NCBI GenBank assembly: GCA_017464085.1
Contig: JAFUEE010000104.1
Coordinates: 16,226-80,225 of the forward strand
Direction of reading: 5' to 3'
DNA: 64,000 nt
Source: Pseudomonadota bacterium
Lineage (GTDB): Bacteria; Myxococcota_A; Bradymonadia; UBA4248
Below, in pieces: positions 1 through 29,594 of the stretch. A program made the position numbers and the translations under genes. The notes under the pieces are model-generated. The model saw only the letters and a program-made list of their open reading frames with translations. It made no database searches and was not told where the DNA came from. The stretch's first letter is position 1; the number at the start of each line of letters is the position of its first letter.

Positions 1-203
1 GTTTTCCCTTTGGTGTGATCATATTCATAAAAGCGCCTTTTGATTTTGATCTTGAAATACAAAACGCTGCAAGCCCGCGATGTTCATGGTCATTCTAAGA
101 AATATAGGCCATGCCTGGGAGGCTTGAACGCTGTGATGATCGCGATGCCATCACAAAATCATCAAATTATAATGATTTTGTATTCCTGACAATCGGTAAC
201 AAA

Positions 204-252
204 AAAGCCCGCTGTCTTCGCATATCAAATGTGGGAGAGCGGGCTTTTGGTG
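204..252 (-). terminator. Putative intrinsic terminator: hairpin GCCCGCT...AGCGGGC flanked by A-run and T-run, downstream of the LysM multidomain gene
   Basis: Inverted repeat gcccgct/agcgggc with A6 upstream and T4 downstream on the + strand, i.e. a T-run follows the hairpin on the minus strand, immediately 3' of the gene ending at 273. Confidence 0.45.
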
Positions 253-272
253 TGGTTATTTACGGCTTGGCA

Positions 273-3191: not shown

Positions 3192-3515
3192 AAAATCCTC
3201 CAAGGTTAAAGTTTAATCGAATCACTGTAAGCGCTACCATTATTTATTATACACAGAATGCGATTTGATGACCAAATAATTTTCATGAATGTCCTGAATT
3301 TATCGTGCGCTCTCTGCGATTAAAGATTTTGTTCTGAGCGCGAATTTTTGGGAGGGGGAAGACTCCCCCTGCGCGGCTATTTCTGCGAAATACGCCGCTA
3401 CCCCCTCGTCGAATCGCAAAGCGCCTTTTCACAATGTTGTGCGGTCAATTTTGTGATTTGCCATCTAATGCTATAAGAGACTTGCCAGGTGAACTTGTGT
3501 GAGAGGGAGGTGAAG
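3192..3515. promoter_or_regulatory. Divergent intergenic promoter region between the LysM-lysozyme gene (-) and the nucleotidyltransferase gene (+); contains REP-like element A1
   Basis: 324-bp non-coding gap between divergently oriented genes. It contains AT-richer stretches (ttgtgatttgccatctaatgctataag) upstream of the + gene. Confidence 0.35.
3352..3410 (+). repeat. REP-like palindromic element, subfamily A copy A1 (GGGGGAAGACTCCCCC-TGCGCGGC-TAT-hairpin-ATA-CGCCGC-TACCCCCTCG)
   Basis: Near-identical copies lie at 9051..9107 (inverted), 22851..22911, 50107..50162 and 4522..4608. The internal hairpin is tatttctgcgaaata. Confidence 0.8.
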
Positions 3516-4520
3516 ATGGCAAAGACAGGCGGTATTTTATTGTGCGCAGGTTTCGGGTCGCGTCTTGCGCCGCTGACGGAGGTCGTGCCCAAGCCGGCGA
3601 TCCCGTTCTGCGGCGTGCCGATGGCGCATTATGCGCGCGCGGCGCTGGAGCGGGCGGGCGTGGCTGAGATGGGGATGAACGTGCATCATCTGCCGGAGCG
3701 CATGATCGAGGCGATGGATGGCGGCCGCTGGATGGATCGCGCGCGGGAAATGCACATATCCCGAGAGGAAGGCGGTATATTGGGCACGGGCGGCGGTGCT
3801 GCAAGGCTCGCAGGGATGATGCCGGACTGCGACCGTTTTGTGATCTATCACGGGGACGTGCTCTGCGGCGCGGACATTTCTGAGGCGCTTGAATCACATA
3901 TTGCGTCGGGCGCGAAAGTGTCGCTCGTCGTGCTTCCGCGTCCGGAAGCGGTCAGGGAGAACGTCAGGCAGTCGCTCGGCATGATCGGCGTCGTGGATCA
4001 TGAGATCGTCTGTATCCGGGACTGGTATAAAAATGACTGTATCATCGAGTTTTCCCCGCGCTGTTTTAGCGGGATACATATTGTGGAGCGCGGCGTGCTG
4101 GAGGCGATCGCGGATCGGGGCAGCGTCTGTCTGGTGACCGAGGTTTACCGGGAGATGCTTGACCGGGGGGAGGCAATCCACGCCTGCGAGCCGTCCGGTG
4201 CTGTATATTTTGCGGATGTGGGAACGCCGGCAACTTATCTGTCGGCACAGCGCGCGTGCCTGAGAAGCCGTGAATATGGCGACGGTCCGGGGCTGCCTGT
4301 CTTGTGCGAAGGAAAGACGCTGTATGACCGCGGGGACCCGAGCGTATCATTCGGCGCGGTGAATATCGGCGATCAAGTCAGGATAGAGGGCAATGTATGC
4401 CTCAACCCGGGGGCGTCAGTTTCAGGCGATGTGTCCTTGCAGGATGAGATGGTGTGCGCGGAAGGCGGCATCAAGCCGGACGGCGCCTGGATATGCGGTG
4501 GAGCGGCACGTGCGCGATGA
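3516..4520 (+). CDS. Sugar-1-phosphate nucleotidyltransferase (NTP-transferase domain plus C-terminal left-handed beta-helix)
   Basis: RBS GGGAGG 5 nt upstream of ATG 3516. The N-terminal motif GGILLCAGFGSRLAPLT is a variant of G-x-G-x-R-L. The C-terminus has hexapeptide-like repeats (VRIEGNVCLNPGASVSGDVSL). Confidence 0.8.
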   Translation: MAKTGGILLCAGFGSRLAPLTEVVPKPAIPFCGVPMAHYARAALERAGVAEMGMNVHHLPERMIEAMDGGRWMDRAREMHISREEGGILGTGGGAARLAGMMPDCDRFVIYHGDVLCGADISEALESHIASGAKVSLVVLPRPEAVRENVRQSLGMIGVVDHEIVCIRDWYKNDCIIEFSPRCFSGIHIVERGVLEAIADRGSVCLVTEVYREMLDRGEAIHACEPSGAVYFADVGTPATYLSAQRACLRSREYGDGPGLPVLCEGKTLYDRGDPSVSFGAVNIGDQVRIEGNVCLNPGASVSGDVSLQDEMVCAEGGIKPDGAWICGGAARAR

Positions 4521-4521
4521 G

Positions 4522-4608
4522 CGCGGCGTATTTGCAACGCCAAATAGCCGCGCGGGGGTAGCGGCGTATTTGCAACGCCAAATAGCCGCGCAGGGGGCGT
4601 TGCCCCCT
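4522..4608 (-). repeat. REP-like element subfamily A, about 1.5 tandem copies (A2), abutting the stop codon of the nucleotidyltransferase gene
   Basis: gcggcgtatttgcaacgccaaatagccgcgc occurs twice, followed by gggggcgttgccccc; it lies between convergent genes. Confidence 0.75.
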
Positions 4609-4652
4609 GAAACAAAAACAGCTTGTAGTGTCTGCGAGTCGCCGACTGGGTG

Positions 4653-5495
4653 TTATTTTTCGAGTGCTTCTTCGAGCATGCTGACGAGCGATTCGACATC
4701 GAAGGTGCTCTGAATTTTGTGGCCGTTGAGGAAGAAGGTCGGCGTGGATTCGACGCCGTTCGTGAGGCCTTCCTTTTTGGCATCGACGACTGAGGCGCGC
4801 ACGGCGGCATCGCGCATGAGCGCGTCGAATTTTTGAGGGTCGGCGCCGATGCTTGCGGCCCATTCGTTCATTCTTTCGAGGGAGAAATCGTCAAAATTCT
4901 CGTAGGACTTGAGGAGGTAGGGCCACGCGAGGCCGAGTTTTGCAGCGGCTTCGACGGCGATGGCGGCCTGGCTTGAATTTTCGTGTGATTTGATCGGGAA
5001 GAGCCGGAGATTGACGGCAATCTTGTCTTTGAACGATGAGTTTTCGAGCGCGTGAATGAGCTTAGGGACGTGTTTCGAGCAGTAAGGGCAGCGTCCGCAT
5101 AGATAGACGGAGAGGACGACTTTTGCATTTGGATTTCCCCAGACGTGTTCGGGAGAAAGGGAGATTTTTGCGGGCGGCAGGATGGAGGCCATGACGAGTG
5201 CGCGCTGATCCAGCGCGTGCTTGATTTCTTCGGTTGTTTTTCCGGATTTAGCGAGCCTGCATGTTTCGTCCGCGAGGCGGCTCGCGAGTTTGCAGGGCTT
5301 TGCGGCCTGGAGGCATTTTTCGATTGTGTCGTCGCAGCAGTCATAGGGGTAGGCGGAGCGCATGACGCTCTGTGCCGTCGCTTTGGCATCTCCCGCGAGG
5401 GCATCGCATGCGGCAGTCTGGGCGACTGCTTGCGCGGAGAAGAGCATTGAGGCGGCGATTATCAAAGAGTTCAGGGATTTCATAGGCTTCACCAT
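4653..5495 (-). CDS. DsbA-family thiol:disulfide oxidoreductase (thioredoxin fold, CPYC active site) with signal peptide and a Cys-rich N-terminal extension
   Basis: N-terminus MKSLNSLIIAASMLFSAQAVA is signal-like. The CxxC motif sits within VYLCGRCPYCSKHVPKL. The C-terminus TPTFFLNGHKI is typical of DsbA-like proteins. An alternative start is at 5483. Confidence 0.75.
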   Translation of the reverse strand: MVKPMKSLNSLIIAASMLFSAQAVAQTAACDALAGDAKATAQSVMRSAYPYDCCDDTIEKCLQAAKPCKLASRLADETCRLAKSGKTTEEIKHALDQRALVMASILPPAKISLSPEHVWGNPNAKVVLSVYLCGRCPYCSKHVPKLIHALENSSFKDKIAVNLRLFPIKSHENSSQAAIAVEAAAKLGLAWPYLLKSYENFDDFSLERMNEWAASIGADPQKFDALMRDAAVRASVVDAKKEGLTNGVESTPTFFLNGHKIQSTFDVESLVSMLEEALEK

Positions 5496-16588: not shown

Positions 16589-19500
16589 TCATTCTCCGCC
16601 AGGCTTCTGCTCCTCAGGCTTCTGCTCCTCAGGCTTCTGCTCCTCAGGTTTCTGATCATCTTTCTTATCATCATTGTTTTGGGCTTTGTCGATGCCATAG
16701 ACCTTGATGTTGTCGAGACGCATCATCTTATAGCCTTCGTCGGTGGCGTTCGTGTCTTCAATGCCCTTGTCGTTGACGATGATCGGCCAGATGTTGTTCT
16801 CTGCGACGGGATCGAGTGTGAGTTTGAGCCATTCGCCTTCCTTGGTGGCGTTCTTCTTATCGTTGATCACGATGGTGCGACCGTCGCCAAAGACGCTCAG
16901 TTCGATCTTGGTGATTTCGAATGCGTCGGTCTTTGTTGTCAGTGAGAAATGACATTTGTCTTTGCCGCCGACTGCGAGATCTGTGCCGAGCGCGCCTACG
17001 ACGCCGTCTTCGCCGGCGACGATCTTGAGCTTGGCGCTCTCGCAGCTGAAAACAAATTTGGCCGCAGCAGCATTCTTGGAGTCAGTGTCTGGCTTGATGT
17101 CAGCCTTGTCGATTGGTGAAGATTTCTTGGTATCCTTATTCCAATACTGATCGAATGTGCTCCAGGATGCGAGCAGTTCGGGGAGCGAGGTGGGCGTAGG
17201 CGCGGGTTTGTCGGTTTCATCCGTGCAGCCCTTGAGCTCTTTGTTCATCAGGCAGACGGGCGAATCGCATTTGCCTTTGCATGCAGTTTTGACCTGGGCT
17301 TCGAAGCATTTTGCGCTATCTTCGTCACTCAGCGGGGCTGACTGATCTACTGGCTTTTCGCAAATATTCACATCCCAGCTTTCGACGGCGGAGCCACCGG
17401 AGCAGACGACGATCGTGTCGTTGTCTTGGCAAGCTTTGTCTTTGCAATGCGTCAGGCATTCCTCGTTGGTCACGCCGTAGCCATTGTTGATGATTTCGGA
17501 GTTGAGGTCACACGTAGGATCGCCGCATGTCGTAAAGGCTTCGCAGTTTTTTTTGCATTCATTGTTGGCAGAAAGGATGATCTGCGTGGCTGTGGCGCCG
17601 GCGTATTCGGTATTGAATTTGCCTTCTTCTGTGCAGACAACGACGCCAGCCCCCTGGCAGCCTGTTTTGTCGCAACGGTTGTTTTTGGCCCAGCTTGAAG
17701 GATCGCTGAACGAACCGCCCAGACATGCCTGGTTAGTGTGATCTTTGATCTGCGCTCCTTCCTTGGCCTCTTTGAGGACCTTTCGGCAAACGCTGTTTTT
17801 GGCCTTGAATTCATCGAGTGATTTGCCGCCACTCAGTTCCATCGTCGGCTTGTCGTTTTCATCTTTATAAGCGATCCATGCGCCGCCGATGGTGTCTTCA
17901 GGTTTTTTGCCGTCGGCCTTGGTCTCTCCGAGAGAACCGGTGCCTGTCCAGCTGCCTTTGACGATCTGCTGCGCGACACAGCCAATGCCTGCGGCCGGGG
18001 CAACGCAGAGCTTGCCGCGCTGGAATTCGCCAGTGCCATCAAGCGTCAGGTTGAGAGACGCATATTTGCTGACTGCGAAGGAAACGGTCTGGCCGGAAAG
18101 CCAATTCAGGCTCAGCTCGCAGAACGTGGAGAGATCGACACTGCCAAGAAGCGGCAACGAGATATTGCCGAGCTTGGAGCAGTCGAGAATATTGGCAAAA
18201 CTGAGGTTGCCGCTGTCGTCGATTGCGCCGATGAATTTGCCGATGACCTGATAGATGAACTCCCCATAAGTGAGATTGAGCGAGAACTTGGTGATCGCAA
18301 GCTGATCGATGCCGTTCGTGAGCTTGGCTTCGGTCCATTTGCCTTCGACGATATTGCCCGGAAGCTCGAGTTTCTTGTCGCCGGTAAACGGAATAAGGGC
18401 ACCGTTATATTTGGCACTGCCTTTAAACTTGCCGGAGTTGCCGTCTTTCTCGAGGGTGAGGTCGCCAGTGAGTGTCAGGTACTGAACGCTGTCGAACACT
18501 TTGCAGAGCTGTTCGGCGATGGCATCCGCGCTGAGGTATTTGTCGAGCAAGGATTTGATGCCCTTTCTGGCCAGCGGCGCGATCTTTTTGCCGATGCTGT
18601 TGATGTGCGTGTAATAATAGAACTTGGCACAGGTGCAGTCGCACTTCGTGTAAAGCTTTTTAAGGCAATCTTTGTCTTCTTTGCCTTTATCATCGAAACA
18701 ATCTTTGTATTTCTGGCCGGAGTTGATCTCGCAGATGCTTTCAAGTTTCGAGACATTGCTGCCATCGGACGGCATACATTTGTTTTTCTTCTGGGAATTT
18801 TCGACACATTTAGTTGTATTGGTATTGTCGCCATCAAAGAAAACATAAGTATCGAGCTCCTCCATGACTTTTTTGGCCGGATCGGCATCGAGGAATTCCT
18901 CGTATTTCGTCATGATCTTGTCGATGCTCTCTTTGACTTTTGAGCCGTCTTTCATCAGAGGCCCGAGGTCGAAGAGGGATTCGGTCTTGTAGCTTTCAGC
19001 AAAGCTGAGCGGGATTTCGGAGAGAAGCACTTTGACATCCATGCGGCGAACTGGCGCGCATTTGCACTTGCCGTCTTTGTCTTTCTGGCTGTTCTTGCAT
19101 GTCGTCAGTCGTTCCGAGTCGTCGCAGGTATTCGGCGTCGTCGGAGAGCCGAAGCGGTTCATGGCGCTGCAGCCGAACACGAGCGGGGAACTGCCGGAAT
19201 CACCAACGGCAAACACGATGTACTTGTCTTTGTGGTTATCGAGGATCAGCTCTTTGGGATAATATTTATTATCGCCTGCTTCTGTCACTTTTTCGAGATC
19301 GCAGATATGGAGCGAATCTTGGGGCTCTGCTTTCAGGCAGTTTGTTTTTCGCGAAGATTCGTTTGCGACGAGGAAGTTCTCGCTGCAGCTGTGATCATCG
19401 GAGGACAGGATGTAATAGCTGACGCCGTTGTAAGCGAGTTTCTGCACGTTCGTGCCGTCGGCTTCGAGCTTGATATGGTTGATTTCCGTGACAGAGGGCG

Positions 19501-22500
19501 TAGGCGGCATATCCTTGACGACAATCTGAATCGTCTCAGGGATCATATTGCCCTCATCGTTGTGGATATTCGGGTACATGACGCTGAGATTGTACGTCGT
19601 CTGCTTCGATCCGGATTTGAAAATGATCGTGGCGATGCCGTTTCTGTCGGTCGGTGATGTCTCGGCATTGAGGGAAGCATCCGCGCCGTCATTGCCTTTG
19701 AGTTTCCAGATGAGCTTGTCGCGGACAGGCGTAATTTCATTGCCATTCTTCCAGACGATCTTGGCTTGGTAATTGATCGTTTCGCCAAGTCCCACGTTTT
19801 CCTGAGGGGAGAGGAAGATAAGGCTCAGGCAGCCCTGTTTGCCTTGCGGACCGGAGGTGTTGAACGCTTCTTTGCAGCATGCCTCCGCAGAATTCTCATC
19901 ACAGTTCTTGAATGTGTTGTCGGAGCATGTGGCGCTGCAAGCGCTTCCCTGATGATATTTGGGGTTGGTGCTGTAACCGTTTACAGTATCGAGGTACTCT
20001 CCGGCGCAGCTCTTGTAGGTTTTGTCGTTCGCATTGCAGGTTTCTGCTTTGCTGCTCGTGGTGCAGGGCTCGACGCATTTTTCCCCATCGAGCTTGGTGC
20101 AGCAGAAATCGCCGTTTTCATTTGTCGTATCGCCATCTGGCAGGTCGACATCGTTGGGGTTGACGCCCGGTATTGTGCCGGTATTGTTCGTGATGGTGAT
20201 CGTGAAGATGAACGGAATGGGTTTCTTTGTCTCTTCATCGATATAATTGGGATGGAAGACACTGACATAATAGAGCGAATTATATCCGGTGCCCGTATAG
20301 AAATAATTGCTTGCAACGCCCTTGGAGTTTGTCACGATCATCGTGTCGTTGAGCGTGGCATTGTTGTTGACGGACTTGCCGCGTGAAATTTTCCAATAAG
20401 TTTTGGTGTCGGCAACGAGCGTCTTGTACTGGTTGTCTTTGATGACTTTGACCTTGAGGTCAAGCGTCTTGACGACCGGTGCGCTGAGGATTTGCTCGAA
20501 CGCGCTGACGTCGTCGGGGAGGACGAGCTTGACATTGCCGAGGTTCGGATCGTAATTCGGCATGCCTCCGGGCGGGATGAGCGCGTCATCTTTATTGGCC
20601 TTGTCGCCTTCGGCAGTAGGCACGCTGAAAGAATTGTTCACAGCGATGACGATCGTGGCTGCTTTTGCATCCTTGTTGACCAGCGTGATCATGTAGGTCG
20701 CATCATAAGCGGTGCCCGCCCAGAACGTGAACTTGGTGTCTTTATTGGCATCGCTGCTCGTGCTGAAGGTGATCTCCGTGTCGGTGTTGCCTTCGGCATC
20801 AAAGGCGCCGTTATTGGAGGGCAGGGAGCCTTTCGTCAGCTTGGCTGTGACATCGAGCGCCTTGAGCTTGCTCGTATCGTTTTTTGAAACGGCGCGCACA
20901 AAAATATCCTGTGTCGTGCTGATGCCGATCGAGAGCTTCTTGCAGGAGCCGTATTCATCCTTTTTGTCATATTTGCATCTGAAGATATAGTCACTGCCGC
21001 AAACTTCATAAAGGCAGGGATCCGGGGCGACATCGGAAGTGCCGTCGCCATCCACGTCAAAGCCGCCGTTATAGAATTCGCTCGAGCAGGAACATTCTCC
21101 GTCCTTCATGGCATCGCATTCGGCTTCCGACACTTTGTTGCCATTCTTGTCCTTGCATGTGACGACTTCGTTGATGACGACATGGATATCATCCGCAATG
21201 CCGTCGCCGTCCACATCCGCCTGAACTTTCTTGCCGTCGCAGGTTTTCAGATCCCACGTGCCGTTGTCGTTTTTCTCAAGCTTGCAGTGGAAGGCGGCAT
21301 TGGGGTCGCAGTCTTTGCCGCTCTGATTTTTGGCAGCATCAGACGTAAAGTCACCGCAGGCTTCGATGATCGATTTGACTGGTTCCGAGTCTTTGTCGAT
21401 CGGTTCGGGGAACATGCTGGCGAGAATCTGCGCGGCATTGCCGCCGTTGATCGTCTCTTTGCCTGTCTCCGAATCAGTCACGACGACATCGGGATCGGTG
21501 AGATCGACTGGGATCTTGATATCATCATTGATGATCACGGCCGGATCGCCCGGCTCTCCGAGCGTGTCGGGAAGCGCGAAGGTGTCGATCTGGTAGGTCA
21601 GGGGGTTGGCGACCTTATGGAAGAAATTGAGGAAATAACGGGCATTGTAAGCCATGCTCGTGTTGATTTCAACCCAGAATTCGCCATTTGCATTGGGATG
21701 GCCGCATGCCACGGCCTTGCCGGTCGCGCTGTCGCCATCCGCTTTATAAGGCTTCTGTCCGGAGGCGTTCTTTTCGCTGACTTCATCGTTGTCAAAGTAG
21801 GATGTGACAAAGCCTGTGTTCGTCGTTGTCGTTTCGACAAAGCTGAAACAGATGGTTTCCTTGGTAAGGTCGCAGGCTGTTTTGGCGTCGTCACCCGTTT
21901 CAGCGCCTGATGCGGCGCATTTGCCATCCAGGCGCACGCCGAGTTTTTTGCTGAAATCGGCATAGAGCTGCTGGTCAAGGCTGTCGAGGTTGACCAGGGC
22001 GGCTTCCGTCATCTTTGTCTCTGCATCGTTAATCTCGCTTGGCACGGTCAGGTCATTTTCGACATCTTTTGTGCCGAGCGTGCAGTCGCTCATTTTGGGA
22101 ATCGTCCGGACATTGATCTCTGCAGAAGCTGGATCGCTGGCATCCGCTGCCCAGAAGTTCAGATAATACATCGGGTTCTTTGAGCTGTACATCGAACCTG
22201 TCTGTACGCGTACAGTGAACGAGCCCTTCTGAACGCCTTTGGGCTTGGAAATGACGGCCATCGAGTCTGTCGGCGGAAACTCCTCTGCATCATAGAGGTC
22301 GCCGGAATCGACGATCAGGCTGCCGTTTGCGCCAGGGGCGCGCTCAAGCGTGATGACGAAGCGAGGCTCTTTCGAGGCGCCCGTCAGCATGCCGTCAAAA
22401 CTGACCTTGAACTCGACCATCTCGTTGATGTGGGCCGTTTCGGACTCGGGAGCGACGGAAAGCTCAAGTTCTTCAAAAACTCCGGAAGGGCCAAGCTCGG

Positions 22501-22711
22501 CCTTGCCCGGCTTGGATTTGGGATTGCTCGACAAGCCATCGCTTTCTACACCGAAAACAAAGGCGTCATTAGTGTCTTTTGGCGCATAACTCGCCCCGTT
22601 GGCGTCGATCGATTCGCCGCGTCTGGAATGTATCTCCTCTGAGTTCGCACATCCAAACAGGGTTGCAAACCATAGGAATAACAATCCTTTGGTGAGTGTT
22701 GATCTTTTCAT
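16589..22711 (-). CDS. Giant cell-surface lipoprotein (~2040 aa) with Cys-rich regions, thrombospondin-type-3-like Ca-binding motifs and a KPEEQ-repeat C-terminal tail
   Basis: AGGAGA RBS 6 nt before ATG 22711. Signal and lipobox are LFGCANS. DVDGDGIADD and DVDGDGTSDV are Ca-binding loops. A 15-bp repeat lies at the 3' end. Confidence 0.85.
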   Translation of the reverse strand: MKRSTLTKGLLFLWFATLFGCANSEEIHSRRGESIDANGASYAPKDTNDAFVFGVESDGLSSNPKSKPGKAELGPSGVFEELELSVAPESETAHINEMVEFKVSFDGMLTGASKEPRFVITLERAPGANGSLIVDSGDLYDAEEFPPTDSMAVISKPKGVQKGSFTVRVQTGSMYSSKNPMYYLNFWAADASDPASAEINVRTIPKMSDCTLGTKDVENDLTVPSEINDAETKMTEAALVNLDSLDQQLYADFSKKLGVRLDGKCAASGAETGDDAKTACDLTKETICFSFVETTTTNTGFVTSYFDNDEVSEKNASGQKPYKADGDSATGKAVACGHPNANGEFWVEINTSMAYNARYFLNFFHKVANPLTYQIDTFALPDTLGEPGDPAVIINDDIKIPVDLTDPDVVVTDSETGKETINGGNAAQILASMFPEPIDKDSEPVKSIIEACGDFTSDAAKNQSGKDCDPNAAFHCKLEKNDNGTWDLKTCDGKKVQADVDGDGIADDIHVVINEVVTCKDKNGNKVSEAECDAMKDGECSCSSEFYNGGFDVDGDGTSDVAPDPCLYEVCGSDYIFRCKYDKKDEYGSCKKLSIGISTTQDIFVRAVSKNDTSKLKALDVTAKLTKGSLPSNNGAFDAEGNTDTEITFSTSSDANKDTKFTFWAGTAYDATYMITLVNKDAKAATIVIAVNNSFSVPTAEGDKANKDDALIPPGGMPNYDPNLGNVKLVLPDDVSAFEQILSAPVVKTLDLKVKVIKDNQYKTLVADTKTYWKISRGKSVNNNATLNDTMIVTNSKGVASNYFYTGTGYNSLYYVSVFHPNYIDEETKKPIPFIFTITITNNTGTIPGVNPNDVDLPDGDTTNENGDFCCTKLDGEKCVEPCTTSSKAETCNANDKTYKSCAGEYLDTVNGYSTNPKYHQGSACSATCSDNTFKNCDENSAEACCKEAFNTSGPQGKQGCLSLIFLSPQENVGLGETINYQAKIVWKNGNEITPVRDKLIWKLKGNDGADASLNAETSPTDRNGIATIIFKSGSKQTTYNLSVMYPNIHNDEGNMIPETIQIVVKDMPPTPSVTEINHIKLEADGTNVQKLAYNGVSYYILSSDDHSCSENFLVANESSRKTNCLKAEPQDSLHICDLEKVTEAGDNKYYPKELILDNHKDKYIVFAVGDSGSSPLVFGCSAMNRFGSPTTPNTCDDSERLTTCKNSQKDKDGKCKCAPVRRMDVKVLLSEIPLSFAESYKTESLFDLGPLMKDGSKVKESIDKIMTKYEEFLDADPAKKVMEELDTYVFFDGDNTNTTKCVENSQKKNKCMPSDGSNVSKLESICEINSGQKYKDCFDDKGKEDKDCLKKLYTKCDCTCAKFYYYTHINSIGKKIAPLARKGIKSLLDKYLSADAIAEQLCKVFDSVQYLTLTGDLTLEKDGNSGKFKGSAKYNGALIPFTGDKKLELPGNIVEGKWTEAKLTNGIDQLAITKFSLNLTYGEFIYQVIGKFIGAIDDSGNLSFANILDCSKLGNISLPLLGSVDLSTFCELSLNWLSGQTVSFAVSKYASLNLTLDGTGEFQRGKLCVAPAAGIGCVAQQIVKGSWTGTGSLGETKADGKKPEDTIGGAWIAYKDENDKPTMELSGGKSLDEFKAKNSVCRKVLKEAKEGAQIKDHTNQACLGGSFSDPSSWAKNNRCDKTGCQGAGVVVCTEEGKFNTEYAGATATQIILSANNECKKNCEAFTTCGDPTCDLNSEIINNGYGVTNEECLTHCKDKACQDNDTIVVCSGGSAVESWDVNICEKPVDQSAPLSDEDSAKCFEAQVKTACKGKCDSPVCLMNKELKGCTDETDKPAPTPTSLPELLASWSTFDQYWNKDTKKSSPIDKADIKPDTDSKNAAAAKFVFSCESAKLKIVAGEDGVVGALGTDLAVGGKDKCHFSLTTKTDAFEITKIELSVFGDGRTIVINDKKNATKEGEWLKLTLDPVAENNIWPIIVNDKGIEDTNATDEGYKMMRLDNIKVYGIDKAQNNDDKKDDQKPEEQKPEEQKPEEQKPGGE
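16592..16650 (-). repeat. 15-bp in-frame tandem repeat x4 (KPEEQ) at the 3' end of the giant lipoprotein gene
   Basis: caggcttctgctcct is repeated 4 times. Confidence 0.8.
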
Positions 22712-22850
22712 ATAGCCTCTCCTTGCACTCGTGTTAAAAAAGGCAAAAAACAAGTCAGATTCTACGATTTTTGCGCTTTTCTGGCAAGTGAGTTACTATA
22801 TTTTGTTTACATGTATTTCAAGCCTGAGAGAATTTTGGCTTTTTTGTGGA

Positions 22851-22911
22851 GGGGGAAGACTCCCCCTGCGCGGCTATTCCTTGCCGGGGCAAGGAATACG
22901 CCGCTACCCCC
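22851..22911 (+). repeat. REP-like element subfamily A copy A4 (variant inner hairpin tattccttgccggggcaaggaata)
   Basis: It shares the gggggaagactccccctgcgcggc...tacgccgctaccccc frame with A1 and A5. The inner stem-loop is replaced by a longer perfect palindrome. Confidence 0.8.
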
Positions 22912-22936: not shown

Positions 22937-24136
22937 CTAATATGAGACTGGATCCTCGATGCGATACAGTCGCTTCATGACCTCATTAAAATAGTCCGGA
23001 AGATAATGCGCCCACACCTTGATCGCACATTCGTCGAGATGTGCGCTTGGAAATGATGCAAACGCAAAGATATACTGTACGAGGTACTCGATGTTGCGTG
23101 CCAGATGACCTGTGTATTCCTCCTTGGAGCGCTGGTTCGTGATGCGCGTCTCATGCATGGAATCACCGATTTCCGATTCCAGCAGGTCTCCGAATGACGA
23201 GTATATGATTTCCAGATAGACATCCTGTTCGCCTGTATAGACGAAGTTTTCAAATTCTTTCTGAATGTCGCCGTACCAGAGCCCGCGAGCGCGCATGGCC
23301 TTGACAAGTTTTGGATCGATGGGGTCCCGGACGAGGAGCTCTTTGTTGGGGCGCGCCCGTATGACCAGATTGGTGGCGTTGTAGTTTTTTTTGTGATGCG
23401 GCTCGATTTCGAAAATATCGGACCGCGTCCTGCTTTCGATGAAATCGTAGAGCTTGTTTTCCTGACCGGGTTCGATGATGACTTTGAGCCCGACGACATC
23501 GTTGATCGGCGGGGCAGTGATTCTGGGGAAATTCACGCCGTCCCTGAGGTCATCGACGATGCGCTGCTCTGCGCGTTCAAATTCGTGGATCATTTCCGTC
23601 TCGCTCGTCAGCAGCTGAGACCTCTGGATGCCGAATTGCTTCGCGCGCATGTCGGCATAATCTTCCGCGCGTTTCTTGATGGCGTTGAAAATCATGTCCA
23701 CGATGCGACGTGATGCTTTTTCAGCGAGACGGCGGGCGCGTTTGACGCGTTGTGAGCCGATGAGCCTGTGCTGAGCGCCTTCGCCGGCAAAATACAGTTT
23801 CGCGTGGATCGGGGTCTCAATATAGTAGAGCTCTCGATTTTTGAGATAATTCTGCACGAGCTCGTCGATGTGCTCGTTATGGTAATGCGGATAGCTCACG
23901 AGCGCATCTTTGAGCTCCGCCTTGGTCTTGATCGAGACCTCGGTCGTCGTCTGCCCTGCAAGTTCTGTGAACAGCTGACGCGACCACAAGCTCAGATAGC
24001 GGCTCGCGTAGATGTTGTTGAAATGGATGAGCTTCGTCACATGCTCGGGATCATCCGGGTTGACACGGTTATGAAGCCATCGCCAGAAAAGATCCTCGAG
24101 TTCATTCCGATGGATATAGCCGCCAATCGTTATCAT
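22937..24136 (-). CDS. Hypothetical cytoplasmic protein; weak resemblance to the RelA/SpoT (alarmone synthetase) nucleotidyltransferase motifs
   Basis: AAGGAAG RBS 6 nt before ATG 24136. There is no signal peptide. The segments SQRVKRARRLAEK and DVVGLKVII resemble the R-x-K-x3-S-x3-K and D-x2-G-x-R-x2 motifs of the RSH synthetase domain, but the spacing is atypical. Confidence 0.55.
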   Translation of the reverse strand: MITIGGYIHRNELEDLFWRWLHNRVNPDDPEHVTKLIHFNNIYASRYLSLWSRQLFTELAGQTTTEVSIKTKAELKDALVSYPHYHNEHIDELVQNYLKNRELYYIETPIHAKLYFAGEGAQHRLIGSQRVKRARRLAEKASRRIVDMIFNAIKKRAEDYADMRAKQFGIQRSQLLTSETEMIHEFERAEQRIVDDLRDGVNFPRITAPPINDVVGLKVIIEPGQENKLYDFIESRTRSDIFEIEPHHKKNYNATNLVIRARPNKELLVRDPIDPKLVKAMRARGLWYGDIQKEFENFVYTGEQDVYLEIIYSSFGDLLESEIGDSMHETRITNQRSKEEYTGHLARNIEYLVQYIFAFASFPSAHLDECAIKVWAHYLPDYFNEVMKRLYRIEDPVSY

Positions 24137-24426
24137 ATTGCACTTCCTTGATGAGCGAGTCACGCCAGGCTTCTGCTGACTTGAAACACTCTATAATAAA
24201 TTGGGGCGTTTGACCAGTAAACTGACGCGCATACCATGTGTAAGGTATCTGAATTGTCTCGCTCTGAATGATAATACAGGGGAGATATTTCAGGATAACT
24301 TGAAAATGACTTGATTTGTTCGAGTGATTTGTTAATTGATGCAAAGATATTTGGGTTAATTCTTTCGGTCTGCTTTGGCGGATCTGTCCTGTTCTGCGAG
24401 TGCAGAGTTTTTTATATGGAGGAGAA

Positions 24427-27400
24427 ATGAGACATTCCAGACAATTCAGCGTGCTTGCGCTGTGTGCCATGGCCGCTCTCGGATTTGGCGTGACATCATG
24501 CGATGATGAGGCCGCGTCCGTGACCAGGAGCAAGCTCAATGAGACGTGTAGCCAGGACAAGCCCTGCGAAGAAGGGCTCGTTTGCGGTGACGAAGGCAAA
24601 TGTGTCGAAGAGGCTGGCCAGGAACCCGAGGATAAGGCCGGGCTCGGGGAGGATTGTGGCGAGGAAAAAGCCTGCGAAGAAGGGCTCGTTTGCGGCGATG
24701 AGGGCAAGTGCGTCAACAAAAATGACCAGCCTGCCGAGCCGGATCCCGGCAATATCAATACTGATCCCTGCAAGACAGCCAATTGCCCGGATGGCACGGC
24801 TTGTCTGGATGGCCGGTGCTATGACGAGGCATGCATCACCAATGGCAGTCTCAAGACTTGCGATGGCGGACAGATGTGCGTCAAAGGGGAATGTGTCGAT
24901 GATGGCTGCCAGGACAAGACATGCGATGAAGGTGAAATCTGCTCCAAGGGTATCTGCGAGGATGCGCTGTGCTTGCAAGGTGCGATTATCTGCAATGAAG
25001 GTTCGACTTGTGTCAAAGGCAATTGCATTGACAATGCCTGCCTGAGCAAAACTTGTGATACCGGGCTCACCTGCGTCAAAGGGGATTGTGTCTTTCCGGC
25101 TTGTGTCGGAAAAGAGGCATGCACGGGCGGCAAGGTCTGCAATGCATCCGGGGAGTGCGTGTATGAAGTCTCCCCTGAGCTTTTGGTACAGGCGGATGAC
25201 AAAGAAACGGACGAATATGGCGATACTGCATCAGTCAGCCTTTCGCTCAATCACCCGCCTGTTGCAGATGTGACGCTCGAATGCGAGATCGCCTCTGAAA
25301 GCCCGGTTCCAGAGGCTGAGGTCAACTGCAGCGGCATCCTGTTTAATGCTGCCAACTATAGCGAGCCCCAGGGCGTTACGGTTATCGGGCTTGCAGACAA
25401 CAAGATTGATTCTGATCAGAAATTTAAGCTCACGATGACCACGCGGTCTGAAGATCCAGACTTTAACGGGCTTGTCCAGAGCCTTGATATGGTCAACAAA
25501 AACGTCGACACAGTCGGTGTAAAGCTCAGCGATACCAATCTTCTGACGACTGAAAATGGCGGTACGGCTGTGTTCAGCGTCTCTCTGATCACCAAGCCGG
25601 CTGCGGATGTGACAATCACCATCGCGTCGAGCAATCCTCAATATGGGATAATCGATGGCGCGGAAGAGAATGTCCTCACGGTGACATTTACCCCGGAAGA
25701 CTGGGAAACTCCGAAAGAGATCACGATCAAAGGCGTCGATGACGATGCGCCTAACGGCGATGAAGGTCATAACTATCAGATCACGTTTACCGTCGCTTCT
25801 GAAGATGTCGATTACAACGGGATCGAGGTCAAGCCGATTTCAGTGGTCAACCTCGACAACGATGTCCACGATGTCTTTTTTGACAAGAATGCGATTGAGA
25901 CGCTTGAAGGCGGTGCCCCTGTCAGCGTCACGGCGCGCTTGGGGCTGGAGCCTGTGGGACAGGTCAAGATCGGCCTCAAAGTCATGAACGGCGAAAACGA
26001 AGCCGAGATTGCAGGCGAAAAAGAAATCGTTATCGACAAGTCCAATTACAAGGAAGGCGTTGCGTTTTCAGTTCAAGGTCTCGTGGACAACAAGATTGAC
26101 GGCGATAAGGATTATCAGGTCAGGGTTCGCATCAATTCAAACGATGACGATGCATACGAGGGCTTGGATGACAAGTTCATACCGGGCAAGAATATCGACA
26201 CGGACAAGGCGGATCTGCGGCTGAGCTATACGAGCACGCTTGTCACTGAGGCCGGTTCGACGATTGATATCGGAGTGTCTCTGATGTCTATCCCGACGGC
26301 CCCTGTGACTGTCCGCGTGAAGTCGACCAATGACGATGAGATGCGGGTCTCTCCGTCTGAATTTGAGTTCACGGCTGAGAATTGGAATGTGCCGCAGACG
26401 GTGACCGTGACCGGCCAGGACGATGTCATTGATGACGGCGATCAGATTTCTCAGGCGGTCTTCAGCATCTTTACGGATGATAAGGATTATGCTGCGCTCG
26501 AAGATATCAACCTCGATATCACGACGCAGGATAACGATACGGCCGAGATTGTTGTGGTTTCAGCAGGTCGCGACATTCGCGAAGATTCGCGGGAGACTGT
26601 CGAATTCAAAGTCGTCCTCGGCGCACAGCCTCAGGATGGAAAGGTCATTGTCCGTGCGACTTCGAGCGATGAGTCGGAACTCAAGCTTCTCGGCAATGAT
26701 ACAGTTTCATTCGACAAAGATAACTGGAATACGCCTCAGTCCTTTGTGCTCCAGGTGCAGGATGATAACTATGCCGATGGCACGCAGGTCGTTCATGTCG
26801 ATCTCGAGAGCGCATCTTCCGATACGCTTTTCAACGGCCTTCATGCGCAGACTGAAAATTATAACATTCTTGACAACGAATCCGCGAGCGTCACGCTGAC
26901 GGCAGCCAAAACGCTGTTCAAGCCGGGCGATCAGTACACCACACCCGTGACAGTCGCGCTGAGCGCGCCGCCTATGGAAGATGTCACGGTTACAATCAAT
27001 ACGACGAATGCGACGACGGCCTCTCTCGACAAGACATCGCTCGTCTTTACGACATCGAACTGGAATACGCCGCAGACGATCAATATGACAAACAAAGACC
27101 CGCAGGCGGCTTCAGCCGCGAAGACGATCGAGACGCTCTCGGCGGTCACAACCGGCAAAGGGTCATATAACAATCTGAAGAGCAATGAAGTCAAGCTGAC
27201 GATGTATGCCTTCATCAGCAAGGAATTTTCGTACACGGGGAATGTCCAGCAGATCGACCTCCTGCCCGGCAACTATCGCCTCCAGGTCTGGGGCGCACGC
27301 GGTGGCAATGATACCTATGCTGGTGCGAATGGCGGTTATGCCGTTGGCGTGTATAAGAAAAACGACAAGAAGCCGCTCTATGTGTATGTAGGCGGTCAGG

Positions 27401-27924
27401 GTTCTGCGTGTGCGACGAATGCAGGCGGCGGCTGGAATGGCGGCGGCAATGCAGGCGCGATCGGGTGTTCTGGAGGTGGCGGTGGCGCGACGGATATCCG
27501 TACTGTCGGCGGCGCTTGGAATCTGGCGGCATCGCTTGATTCGAGAATCATTGTCGCCGGCGGCGGCGGCGGTGGCGGCAATACGACTTCGACATGTGTC
27601 GGCGGTGTCGGTGGCGGCACGAATGGTGGCGGCAGCGGCGTTGAAAAGCAGCAGGGCAAAGGCGGCACGCAGACGGCTGGCTATGCCAAAGGCCAAGGCG
27701 GGCATCCCGCTCAGGATGGCGGCGGCGGCGGCGGCGGCTACTGGGGCGGCTACGGCAGTGCGGGCTATGACGACGGCGGTGGCGGTGGTTCCGGCTATGT
27801 GTCGCCGATCCTCACGAGCGCATCGACGACTGCGGGCAATGCTGCGTTCCCGAACACGGCAGGTTCTGGCAATGAAACCGGCCACGCGACCAGCGGCTAT
27901 GCCAAAATCACGCTGATCGACTGA
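24427..27924 (+). CDS. Secreted lipoprotein: Cys-rich EGF-like N-terminal modules, about 7 Calx-beta-like ~105-aa repeats, and a C-terminal glycine-rich (ALK/LTK-type Gly_rich-like) domain
   Basis: Signal and lipobox are GFGVTSC. The motif CEEGLVCGDEGKCV repeats. Each repeated domain ends with a V-x-G-x-DD...DGD...Y-x-G signature. The C-terminus has GGGGGGN and GGGGGGGY runs between conserved blocks (YRLQVWGARGG...YVYVGGQG). Confidence 0.8.
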   Translation: MRHSRQFSVLALCAMAALGFGVTSCDDEAASVTRSKLNETCSQDKPCEEGLVCGDEGKCVEEAGQEPEDKAGLGEDCGEEKACEEGLVCGDEGKCVNKNDQPAEPDPGNINTDPCKTANCPDGTACLDGRCYDEACITNGSLKTCDGGQMCVKGECVDDGCQDKTCDEGEICSKGICEDALCLQGAIICNEGSTCVKGNCIDNACLSKTCDTGLTCVKGDCVFPACVGKEACTGGKVCNASGECVYEVSPELLVQADDKETDEYGDTASVSLSLNHPPVADVTLECEIASESPVPEAEVNCSGILFNAANYSEPQGVTVIGLADNKIDSDQKFKLTMTTRSEDPDFNGLVQSLDMVNKNVDTVGVKLSDTNLLTTENGGTAVFSVSLITKPAADVTITIASSNPQYGIIDGAEENVLTVTFTPEDWETPKEITIKGVDDDAPNGDEGHNYQITFTVASEDVDYNGIEVKPISVVNLDNDVHDVFFDKNAIETLEGGAPVSVTARLGLEPVGQVKIGLKVMNGENEAEIAGEKEIVIDKSNYKEGVAFSVQGLVDNKIDGDKDYQVRVRINSNDDDAYEGLDDKFIPGKNIDTDKADLRLSYTSTLVTEAGSTIDIGVSLMSIPTAPVTVRVKSTNDDEMRVSPSEFEFTAENWNVPQTVTVTGQDDVIDDGDQISQAVFSIFTDDKDYAALEDINLDITTQDNDTAEIVVVSAGRDIREDSRETVEFKVVLGAQPQDGKVIVRATSSDESELKLLGNDTVSFDKDNWNTPQSFVLQVQDDNYADGTQVVHVDLESASSDTLFNGLHAQTENYNILDNESASVTLTAAKTLFKPGDQYTTPVTVALSAPPMEDVTVTINTTNATTASLDKTSLVFTTSNWNTPQTINMTNKDPQAASAAKTIETLSAVTTGKGSYNNLKSNEVKLTMYAFISKEFSYTGNVQQIDLLPGNYRLQVWGARGGNDTYAGANGGYAVGVYKKNDKKPLYVYVGGQGSACATNAGGGWNGGGNAGAIGCSGGGGGATDIRTVGGAWNLAASLDSRIIVAGGGGGGGNTTSTCVGGVGGGTNGGGSGVEKQQGKGGTQTAGYAKGQGGHPAQDGGGGGGGYWGGYGSAGYDDGGGGGSGYVSPILTSASTTAGNAAFPNTAGSGNETGHATSGYAKITLID

Positions 27925-28922: not shown

Positions 28923-29594
28923 ATGGCTGGTAACCTGACATCTTCACTCGAAGATTATCTTGAGACGATTTATCTGCTTCAGGAAGGCAGGAATCAGGAT
29001 GCGCGCGTGCGCGATATTGCAGCGGCGCGCTCAGTGAAGGCATCATCCGTTTCGCCTGCGCTCAAGCGGCTTTCAGAAATGGGATATCTCAAGTATGAAC
29101 AGCGTGAGTTGATCCGTCTGACGGACTCGGGGCTTGTCGCGGCGCGGCGCGTCTATGCGCGGCATGTGCTGCTGTTTCAGTTTTTCCACGATATTTTGGG
29201 CATGCCAGAGGAAAAGGCGCGCGAGGAGGCTTGCGGACTGGAGCATGCGCTTTCGGACGAGGGCATGGATCGTTTCGTGAGATTTTTTGAGTCCCTGACG
29301 ATGTGCCAGCATGCGAAGGCTTGCGCCGATGTGCCTGAGAATTGTCAGAACTGCACCAGGCATGGCGGCAATCATGTGCATTTTTCGGAAGTCAGGGACG
29401 GAGAAACGGCAGTTGTCTGTCAGATTCAGGCGGACGGGGAGGCGCGGCAGACCATACTTGAAATGGGGATATTGCCAAATGTTTCGCTGCACAGGCGCTT
29501 TTCAACGGAAAGCCATGTGTTTGTCGCGATCGGTCAGCATGAACTTGTGCTGACCAAGGAACAGTGCGCGGCTATTTTGGTGATTCGGAACTGA
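28923..29594 (+). CDS. DtxR/MntR-family metal-dependent transcriptional regulator with C-terminal FeoA/SH3-like domain
   Basis: AAGGA RBS. The N-terminus LEDYLETIYLL...ARVRDIAAARSVKASSVSPALKRL is a winged HTH. The C-terminus VVCQIQADGEARQTILEMGILPNVSL is FeoA-like. An unusual Cys cluster (CQHAKACADVPENCQNCTRH) sits in the metal-binding region. Confidence 0.85.
   Translation: MAGNLTSSLEDYLETIYLLQEGRNQDARVRDIAAARSVKASSVSPALKRLSEMGYLKYEQRELIRLTDSGLVAARRVYARHVLLFQFFHDILGMPEEKAREEACGLEHALSDEGMDRFVRFFESLTMCQHAKACADVPENCQNCTRHGGNHVHFSEVRDGETAVVCQIQADGEARQTILEMGILPNVSLHRRFSTESHVFVAIGQHELVLTKEQCAAILVIRN

Follow-up and report, generated by a model that had tools for sequence, protein, structure and literature searches.

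A divergent protein family with features of RelA/SpoT-type synthetases, represented by a 399-residue protein from Bradymonadia

The gene and its family

The window analysed here is a 64,000-nucleotide stretch of contig JAFUEE010000104.1 (GenBank assembly GCA_017464085.1) from a bacterium of the Bradymonadia lineage UBA4248, and its subject is a minus-strand gene that encodes a 399-residue protein (Table 1). The protein, with a predicted mass of 47 kDa and described as the soluble product of a single gene, has the same sequence as MBQ9243134.1, annotated as a "hypothetical protein" in a Proteobacteria metagenome-assembled genome (MAG). Its catalytic core is very probably a deeply divergent homologue of the RelA/SpoT homologue (RSH) synthetase domain, with the fold of RelQ and RelP. 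An initial annotation of the window had described an open reading frame (ORF) of 399 residues with a good ribosome-binding site and no signal peptide, and this description is borne out. The ORF listing allows a longer product of 408 residues from an upstream GTG at 24163 (22937..24163); the family alignment, in which a start at M-I-T-I is common to all homologues, places the start at the ATG. Since the N-terminus is not hydrophobic, the protein carries no signal peptide.

Table 1. Features of the gene and of its surroundings, in window coordinates, with protein segments given by residue number.
Feature	Residues	Coordinates	Strand	Description
Coding sequence, 399 residues plus stop codon		22937..24136	minus	ATG at 24136, stop codon at 22937-22939; homologues align from M1
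N-terminal region	1-123	23768..24136	minus	helices 10-21, 29-60, 72-81, 88-99; strands 65-71, 109-117; carries K72
Syn1-like motif	127-143	23708..23758	minus	G-S-x-R130-x-K132-R-x-x-R136-L-A-E-K140-x-x-R143; beta1 and start of long basic helix
Insertion 1	168-209	23510..23635	minus	extended helix and helix 179-198, between Syn1 helix and Syn2 strand
Syn2-like motif	211-221	23474..23506	minus	I-N-D213-V-x-G216-x-K218-V-I-I, strand beta2
G-loop/Syn3-like segment	247-258	23363..23398	minus	H247-x4-Y252-N-A254-T-N256-L, beta3-beta4 turn
Insertion 2	263-304	23225..23350	minus	three short helices between beta4 and beta5; conserved R284-G285
Syn4-like strand	306-314	23195..23221	minus	V-x-L-E309-I-I311-x-S-S, beta5
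Helix pair after beta5	319-336	23129..23182	minus	L-E320-S-E322-I-G324-x3-H328-E329-x-R331-I-x3-Q335-R336
Conserved C-terminal coil	371-383	22988..23026	minus	P-I-K-L-W375-x-R-Y378-L-P380-D-Y-F, family-specific
Ribosome-binding site AAGGAAG		24143..24149	minus	6 nt 5′ of ATG, read from sequence
Sigma-70-like promoter match		24193..24221	minus	TTTACT-17-TATTAT, 9/12; consensus match only
Hairpin 1		22850-22867		7-bp stem; part of 22850..22904 element, 33 nt 3′ of stop codon
Hairpin 2		22870-22904		16-bp stem with one bulge; 11-bp perfect core computed, outer 5 bp and bulge read from sequence

Pfam, NCBIfam, PADLOC and PHROGs gave no significant match for the 399-residue protein. A word-indexed search of 5.8 billion proteins returned 84 relatives, all of them unnamed and without a Pfam domain and nearly all full length (397-453 residues), with 60-99% identity to the window protein in Proteobacteria and Bradymonadia MAGs and 41-46% in MAGs of Desulfobacterales and Syntrophaceae. 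Among 1.84 billion cluster representatives searched exhaustively with HMMER, no more than 225 clusters reached E ≤ 1e-3; many of these matches are fragments, and full-length members measure about 390-425 residues. Two profiles were built, a shallow family profile (A1) and a deeper one (A2) from an alignment of 54 sequences, the most distant of which are about 20% identical to the window protein. When one genome per GTDB species was scanned with A1, 375 loci were found to encode a relative, and the best 80 of these 375 lie in MAGs of Myxococcota, Bradymonadales, Syntrophales, Syntrophus and Desulfobacterales, apart from a few whose bin labels are odd (one Bacteroidaceae, one Methanoregula). A profile built from the members that diverge most led to a further clade, 398 proteins in all, with lengths of 405-478 residues among the matches listed; the few of its members that carry a name are Acidobacteriota/Thermoanaerobaculales. 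This is a small family of uniform length, limited to few lineages, namely Bradymonadia, Syntrophales, Desulfobacterales and Thermoanaerobaculales.

One protein of unusual composition (P0212, 439 residues) combines an N-terminus like that of mandelate racemase/enolase (MR_MLE_C, E = 3e-18) with the C-terminal ~100 residues of the family, in which E-x-I-L-T-T, ESEFG and GRYLPD follow one another; it is either a real fusion or the outcome of a chimeric contig or gene call.

Probable kinship with RSH synthetases

The initial annotation had built its reading on three motifs, all of which are present: SQRVKRARRLAEK at residues 128-140, DVVGLKVII at 213-221, and EIIYSS at 309-314 with HETRI at 328-332. 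Conservation was counted in alignment A2 (n = 54), where the motifs are near-invariant even at the lowest identities sampled. In the Syn1-like motif, R130 is kept in 52 of the 54 sequences, K132, R136 and K140 in 53 each, and R143 in 51; in the Syn2-like motif, D213 and G216 are invariant and K218 is found in 51 members. Y252 of the G-loop is kept in 50 members and E309 of the Syn4-like strand in 52, with Asp in the other two. The helices that follow beta5 carry H328 (53/54), E329 (54/54), R331 (51/54) and R336 (53/54), and residues 319-336 form the best-conserved block of the family at the position of the RSH Syn5 helix; by this alignment, H328 may be the counterpart of the ribose-binding His of that helix. 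K72 in the N-terminal region, a family-specific residue, is present in all 54. Loss of the motif residues in orthologues, which the annotation had named as one outcome that would speak against its reading, was not seen, with counts of 50 to 54 throughout.

The resemblance differs in quality from one motif to the next. The spacing of the Syn1-like motif is identical to that of the RSH triphosphate-binding pattern R-x-K-x3-S-x3-K-x2-R, with Ser replaced by Arg. In Syn2, the adenine-stacking Arg of RSH is a Lys (K218) in 51 members. In Syn3, the Ser is Ala, Gly or Asp and the His is Asn in 41 members, with His retained in eight; the canonical Y-x-[SG]-x-H is retained in the divergent clade that is partly Acidobacteriota. 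The Syn4 pattern E-x-Q-x-R-T was not found as such: its Glu is kept, Gln is replaced by Ile in 49 of the 54 sequences, and R-T reads x-[ST]. The motifs also lie further apart than in canonical RSH enzymes, as the annotation had observed. K140 and D213 are separated by 73 residues (16 in RelQ), and Y252 and E309 by 57 (23 in RelQ), because the family has two insertions relative to RelQ, of ~57 residues between the Syn1 helix and beta2 and of ~34 residues between beta4 and beta5. Insertion 1 is not present in RelQ, RelP or Rel, and the N-terminal region has no sequence counterpart in known RSH proteins.

In the structure model, DSSP assigns a strand at 124-131, a long helix at 134-167, a helix at 179-198, a strand at 215-220 and a helix at 226-236 to the first half of the core, followed by strands at 240-249 and 252-261, three short helices within 265-301, a strand at 306-313 and helices at 315-337 and 344-359. 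The modelled order (beta1, alpha, beta2, alpha, beta3, beta4, beta5, alpha, alpha) is the topology of small alarmone synthetases (SAS) with two insertions added, and the model shows a central mixed beta-sheet (beta1-beta5) framed by helices as in SAS1, SAS2 and RelP. The initial annotation had suggested comparison with the RSH fold as a check, and SAS1/YjbM came out as the best entry of the structural comparison, with a score of 9.3 (142 residues, 3.2 Å, 15% identity). SAS2/YwaC (9.2) and RelP (9.1, 18% identity) came next, and the same list holds SpoT (7qps_B, 7.7; 7qpr_A, 7.6), CapRel (7.6), B. subtilis Rel (6yxa_A, 7.4; 8acu_B, 7.3) and, lower down, SaSAS (7.0), Tas1 (5.6) and RelA (5.5). 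Nucleotidyltransferases of the Pol-beta type, represented by MenT, TENT5, Pol lambda, LnuA and cGLR, scored 6.5 at most, and their hallmark of a G[SG] loop followed by a [DE]h[DE]h catalytic strand, as seen in MenT, AbiEii, CD-NTases and TENT proteins, was not found in the protein. Foldseek against the PDB also ranked RSH proteins first and second (CapRel, E = 0.03; SAS1, E = 0.06), at values that are non-significant.

Sequence profiles led to the same proteins. Against PDB sequences, single-sequence phmmer and hmmsearch with the shallow profile A1 gave no RSH match, and with A2 the top match among 177,635 distinct PDB sequences was SAS2/YwaC (E = 7.6e-4), in an alignment that pairs inDvaGiKvi with IHDIAGVRII and YnatnL with YRSLHL. 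For a profile-profile comparison, an RSH reference alignment of 20 sequences was assembled from B. subtilis RelQ and its relatives, S. pneumoniae and S. mutans RelQ, E. coli RelA and SpoT, and nine plasmid-borne RSH proteins. The B. subtilis RelQ sequence used is 100% identical to PDB 5DED/5F2V, and E. coli relA/spoT and plasmid RSH proteins were included because a homologue search with RelQ gave only close Bacillaceae RelQ. Aligned to this reference with hhalign, A2 scored 30.9-32.3 (P ~1e-3). The alignment spans 143-150 columns and brings Syn2, Syn3 and Syn4 into register, with a gap of 34 residues between the last two; when the columns of A2 were shuffled (150 controls), the scores fell to 14.1 ± 2.4 and never exceeded 22.0. 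The 57-residue gap was left unopened by hhalign, so that Syn1 was not placed there, and its register is taken from a RelQ-type hidden Markov model (HMM), which sets the Syn1 segment tGRvKkiesilEKvkRk onto SQRVKRARRLAEKASRR in nearly every member. Three independent methods, by structure, by profile against sequence and by profile against profile, converge on RSH synthetases, in agreement with the initial proposal of a divergent RSH synthetase-like protein.

The family differs from each group of known synthetases. Compared with RelQ/SAS1 (YjbM) and RelP/SAS2 (YwaC), it is long (399 residues here, ~210 there), adds the two insertions, the N-terminal region and the conserved C-terminal coil, and has Lys for the Syn2 Arg, Ile for the Syn4 Gln without the R-T, and a diverged Syn5; it is also negative with the RSH synthetase model PF04607, and its hosts belong to Myxococcota, Desulfobacterota and Acidobacteriota instead of Firmicutes. 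Unlike the long RSH proteins Rel, RelA and SpoT, which PF04607 likewise sets apart from it, it lacks the HD hydrolase, TGS, ACT and ribosome-binding domains. From the (pp)pApp synthetases Tas1 and exported SaSAS it is set apart by its much larger size and by the lack of a secretion signal and of a type VI secretion or immunity-gene context.

The sole Pfam trace in the protein is a sub-threshold match to DUF7893 (17.3 bits against a cutoff of 27) at residues 286-359 (window 23060-23281), across beta5 and the Syn5-like helices, and seven of the 54 family members match this domain at E ≤ 1. A literature search found nothing on DUF7893, which may be another unrecognised RSH-like family.

Predicted activity and competing explanations

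The roles of the motif residues can be read from two enzymes of known structure. In RelP of S. aureus, Arg78 and Arg112 make stacking contacts with the donor adenine, the phosphates are bound by Lys80, Ser84, Lys88 and Arg91, and Mg2+ is held by Asp107 and Glu174; His190 binds the ribose, and the G-loop Tyr151 binds the acceptor guanine (PMC5794853). In FaRel2, R64, K66, S70, K74 and R77 bind the triphosphate and D90 the Mg2+, while R95, Q147 and G93 contact adenine and Y128 the acceptor (PMC11782079). By alignment, R130, K132, R136, K140 and R143 correspond to the donor triphosphate ligands, with R136 in the place of the Ser, D213 and E309 to the Mg2+ ligands, and Y252 to the acceptor-stacking Tyr of the G-loop. 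On the adenine side, two contacts are changed, with K218 for the Arg of D-x-x-G-x-R and I311 for the Gln of E-x-Q. The acceptor motifs have diverged as well (S and H of Syn3, R-T of Syn4 and Y-K of Syn5). The pattern as a whole suggests that the NTP-Mg2+ chemistry is conserved, with a remodelled acceptor site and altered base recognition.

We propose that the 399-residue protein is a stand-alone, alarmone-synthetase-like pyrophosphokinase. It would bind a nucleoside triphosphate (NTP) with Mg2+ in the RSH donor site and move the beta,gamma-pyrophosphate of the NTP to a hydroxyl, most likely the 3′-OH of a purine nucleotide. A catalytically active RSH-like pyrophosphokinase with a physiological, non-toxin function is the reading that we favour with moderate confidence, and we lean a little more cautiously towards pyrophosphokinase activity as such. 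That the product is (pp)pGpp or (pp)pApp is a tentative suggestion. In donor-base and acceptor specificity, the protein is probably unlike a classical (p)ppGpp synthetase, since the adenine contacts are replaced, the acceptor motifs have diverged, and family-specific elements have been added, namely the N-terminal region with K72, the two insertions and the C-terminal W-x-x-Y-L-P-D-Y. The C-terminal coil may contribute to the active site or cover it as a plug.

Several observations weigh against this proposal. The 399-residue protein has no match to PF04607 at E ≤ 10, and none of the 54 family members has one even at E ≤ 1; NCBIfam likewise has nothing for it. Several residues by which RSH synthetases are defined have been lost, in Syn2 (Arg), Syn4 (Gln, Arg and Thr) and Syn5 (Tyr-Lys), and we infer from alignments that the conserved residues share one pocket. 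Genomic context gives no functional hint either, as no conserved neighbour was found and Rfam showed no riboswitch in the gene or in the intergenic regions on its two sides. In a positive control for PF04607, eight of eight diverse plasmid RSH proteins matched, with E values of 1e-15 to 1e-35. Because the controls match the model and no member does, the family is a remote homologue outside the current sequence definition of RSH. We file it as a remote homologue working like an RSH synthetase, and not as a member of PF04607 or of a named SAS subfamily, since it does not match the sequence model and some defining motif residues are absent.

The alternatives that survive best concern what the enzyme would make. 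The family could be an unrecognised branch of the RSH superfamily with a different product, made from a non-adenine donor, on a non-guanine acceptor, or as a pyrophosphorylated metabolite or RNA. We regard this as possible, if a minority view; K218, I311, the rebuilt acceptor side, K72, E329, R336 and Y378 would then form a new specificity pocket. A novel synthetase of nucleotide messengers, which the initial annotation had named as its other option, is likewise a possible reading. A slightly less probable explanation keeps the RSH-like fold and changes the chemistry, so that an NTP donor serves a non-nucleotide acceptor (a metabolite, a protein side chain or an RNA end) or the protein carries out nucleotidyl or single phosphoryl transfer. 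The diverged parts are indeed the acceptor-side motifs (S/H of Syn3, Q-R-T of Syn4 and Y-K of Syn5), and in known RSH enzymes acceptor specificity is set by a charge patch beside the conserved Tyr (PMC11782079). K72, E320/E322, E329, R331, R336 and Y378, together with ~250 residues outside the SAS core, could form a new acceptor site, and a 2-oxoacid:ferredoxin oxidoreductase cluster adjoins the gene in two lineages. This adjacency, however, is seen in none of the 80 other genome loci, the purine-stacking G-loop Tyr is kept in 50 of 54 members with Y-x-[SG]-x-H retained in the divergent clade, and an RSH-fold enzyme with a non-ribose acceptor was not found in the literature consulted.

The protein might instead be a pseudoenzyme or sensor, a non-catalytic NTP- or alarmone-binding protein descended from an RSH synthetase. 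Catalytically weak or dead RSH synthetase domains exist, as in SpoT, and loss of the Q, R and T of Syn4 and the Arg of Syn2 would fit such a descent. Both metal-binding acidic residues and the five basic triphosphate ligands are nevertheless near-invariant over a very long divergence, the pattern that alignments of a working active site would be expected to show, and we judge a pseudoenzyme to be improbable.

The initial annotation had raised a CapRel-like fused toxin-antitoxin or another toxic SAS (toxSAS) of defence, in which the toxin would be held in cis by a terminal domain until a phage trigger releases it, and had called the setting of the gene a typical accessory context. Neither suggestion is supported by the locus or by the family, and such a function now seems at least as improbable as a pseudoenzyme. 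Searches of PADLOC, PHROGs and viral structures (Foldseek against BFVD) gave no match or fold relative. Neither a conserved neighbour nor an antitoxin was found in 66 loci from species representatives, where no gene family occurs in more than 14 loci; the commonest adjacent gene, an opposite-strand D-Ala-D-Ala-carboxypeptidase-like ORF, accounts for 12 of the 64 loci with a downstream neighbour. Six further contexts of distant members hold unrelated housekeeping genes and no small partner. The window neighbours are housekeeping or surface-protein genes (two giant lipoproteins, DUF192, a DtxR-FeoA regulator and a TPR protein), among which there are no defence, integrase or mobile-element genes. 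In close relatives, the 399-residue gene is 73-88% identical, whereas the flanking lipoprotein is ~30% identical or absent. Conservation along the protein is even: the mean frequency of the commonest residue is 0.38-0.60 across all segments, and at the C-terminus it is 0.49, like that of the core (0.46-0.60), so that the C-terminus is not hypervariable. In contrast to CapRel, a fused toxSAS-antitoxin, and FaRel2, a toxSAS that pyrophosphorylates tRNA, the family has no hypervariable sensor domain and no antitoxin gene or defence or prophage context; it keeps a constant length of ~400 residues, a near-neutral pI (family median 6.2) and a lineage-coherent, vertical distribution. Vertical inheritance as an apparently monocistronic chromosomal gene favours a physiological role, in signalling or metabolism, over that of a toxin.

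For a coincidental resemblance without RSH or nucleotidyltransferase kinship, one could cite the silence of standard domain databases and of tblastn: searched against the window and 88 family loci, 20 RSH queries uncovered neither a canonical RSH in the vicinity nor any BLAST-level similarity to family members. Such a coincidence is scarcely credible given the agreement of three independent methods, the shuffled control for hhalign and the co-linearity of five motifs with exact internal spacing in Syn1.

If the protein is an RSH-type pyrophosphokinase, as we favour, its interest lies in the reach of present sequence models. RSH enzymes hold a central place in the production of bacterial alarmones, and their census by Jimmy et al. 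(2020) comprises 30 SAS subfamilies (PMC7229694). As that census was built with sequence HMMs, it probably does not include this family. Because the family escapes sequence models yet appears to keep the donor-site chemistry, the known diversity of RSH-type pyrophosphokinases is incomplete. It is a clean biochemical target, with D213, E309, R130, K132, K140 and Y252 as the predicted catalytic residues, and it occurs in poorly studied anaerobic and predatory lineages. Should the product be (p)ppGpp or (pp)pApp, an orphan source of alarmone would be added to these phyla; should it differ, Bradymonadia, Syntrophales, Desulfobacterales and Thermoanaerobaculales would have a new nucleotide signal or modification. 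The family also illustrates that a toxin or defence label does not suit every divergent RSH-like protein.

Expression signals and neighbouring genes

The promoter match upstream of the start codon suggests that the 399-residue gene has a promoter of its own, and a separate, better match at 22787-22759 (minus strand) stands ahead of the downstream lipoprotein gene. Judged from these signals, the gene appears monocistronic. Two perfect or near-perfect hairpins sit between it and the giant lipoprotein gene, without a U-tract on either strand, and are probably a 3′-end structure. The initial annotation had called them a REP-like element; we rejected this assignment, because the pair occurs once in the window, with no second copy, and so does not form a repetitive family here.

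Downstream of the hairpins, a gene at 16589-22711 (minus strand) encodes a 2040-residue, Cys-rich predicted lipoprotein that ends in a PEEQK repeat and has no Pfam match. Its homologues in related MAGs are only ~30% identical, and it therefore evolves far faster than the adjacent 399-residue gene. On the other side, 28923-29594 (plus strand) encodes a DtxR-type iron-dependent repressor with a FeoA domain fused at its C-terminus, and a DUF192 lipoprotein gene adjoins it; the pair is kept beside the 399-residue gene in a close relative (L020).

In the P0069 group and in the Acidobacteriota clade, two lineages that lie far apart, the family gene is transcribed divergently from a 2-oxoacid:ferredoxin oxidoreductase cluster (L005/L006, 2698-7068; L100/L101, ~1-5200), which comprises POR_N, TPP_enzyme_C, POR gamma and ferredoxin genes, with NuoE/F-like genes in addition in Acidobacteriota.

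Between the 399-residue gene and the repressor gene, 24427-27924 (plus strand) encodes a predicted lipoprotein of 1165 residues that the relative L020 lacks at the same position. Over its C-terminal ~220 residues it matches the ALK/LTK glycine-rich domain (PF12810, E = 5.7e-33), which is familiar chiefly from the receptor kinases of animals.

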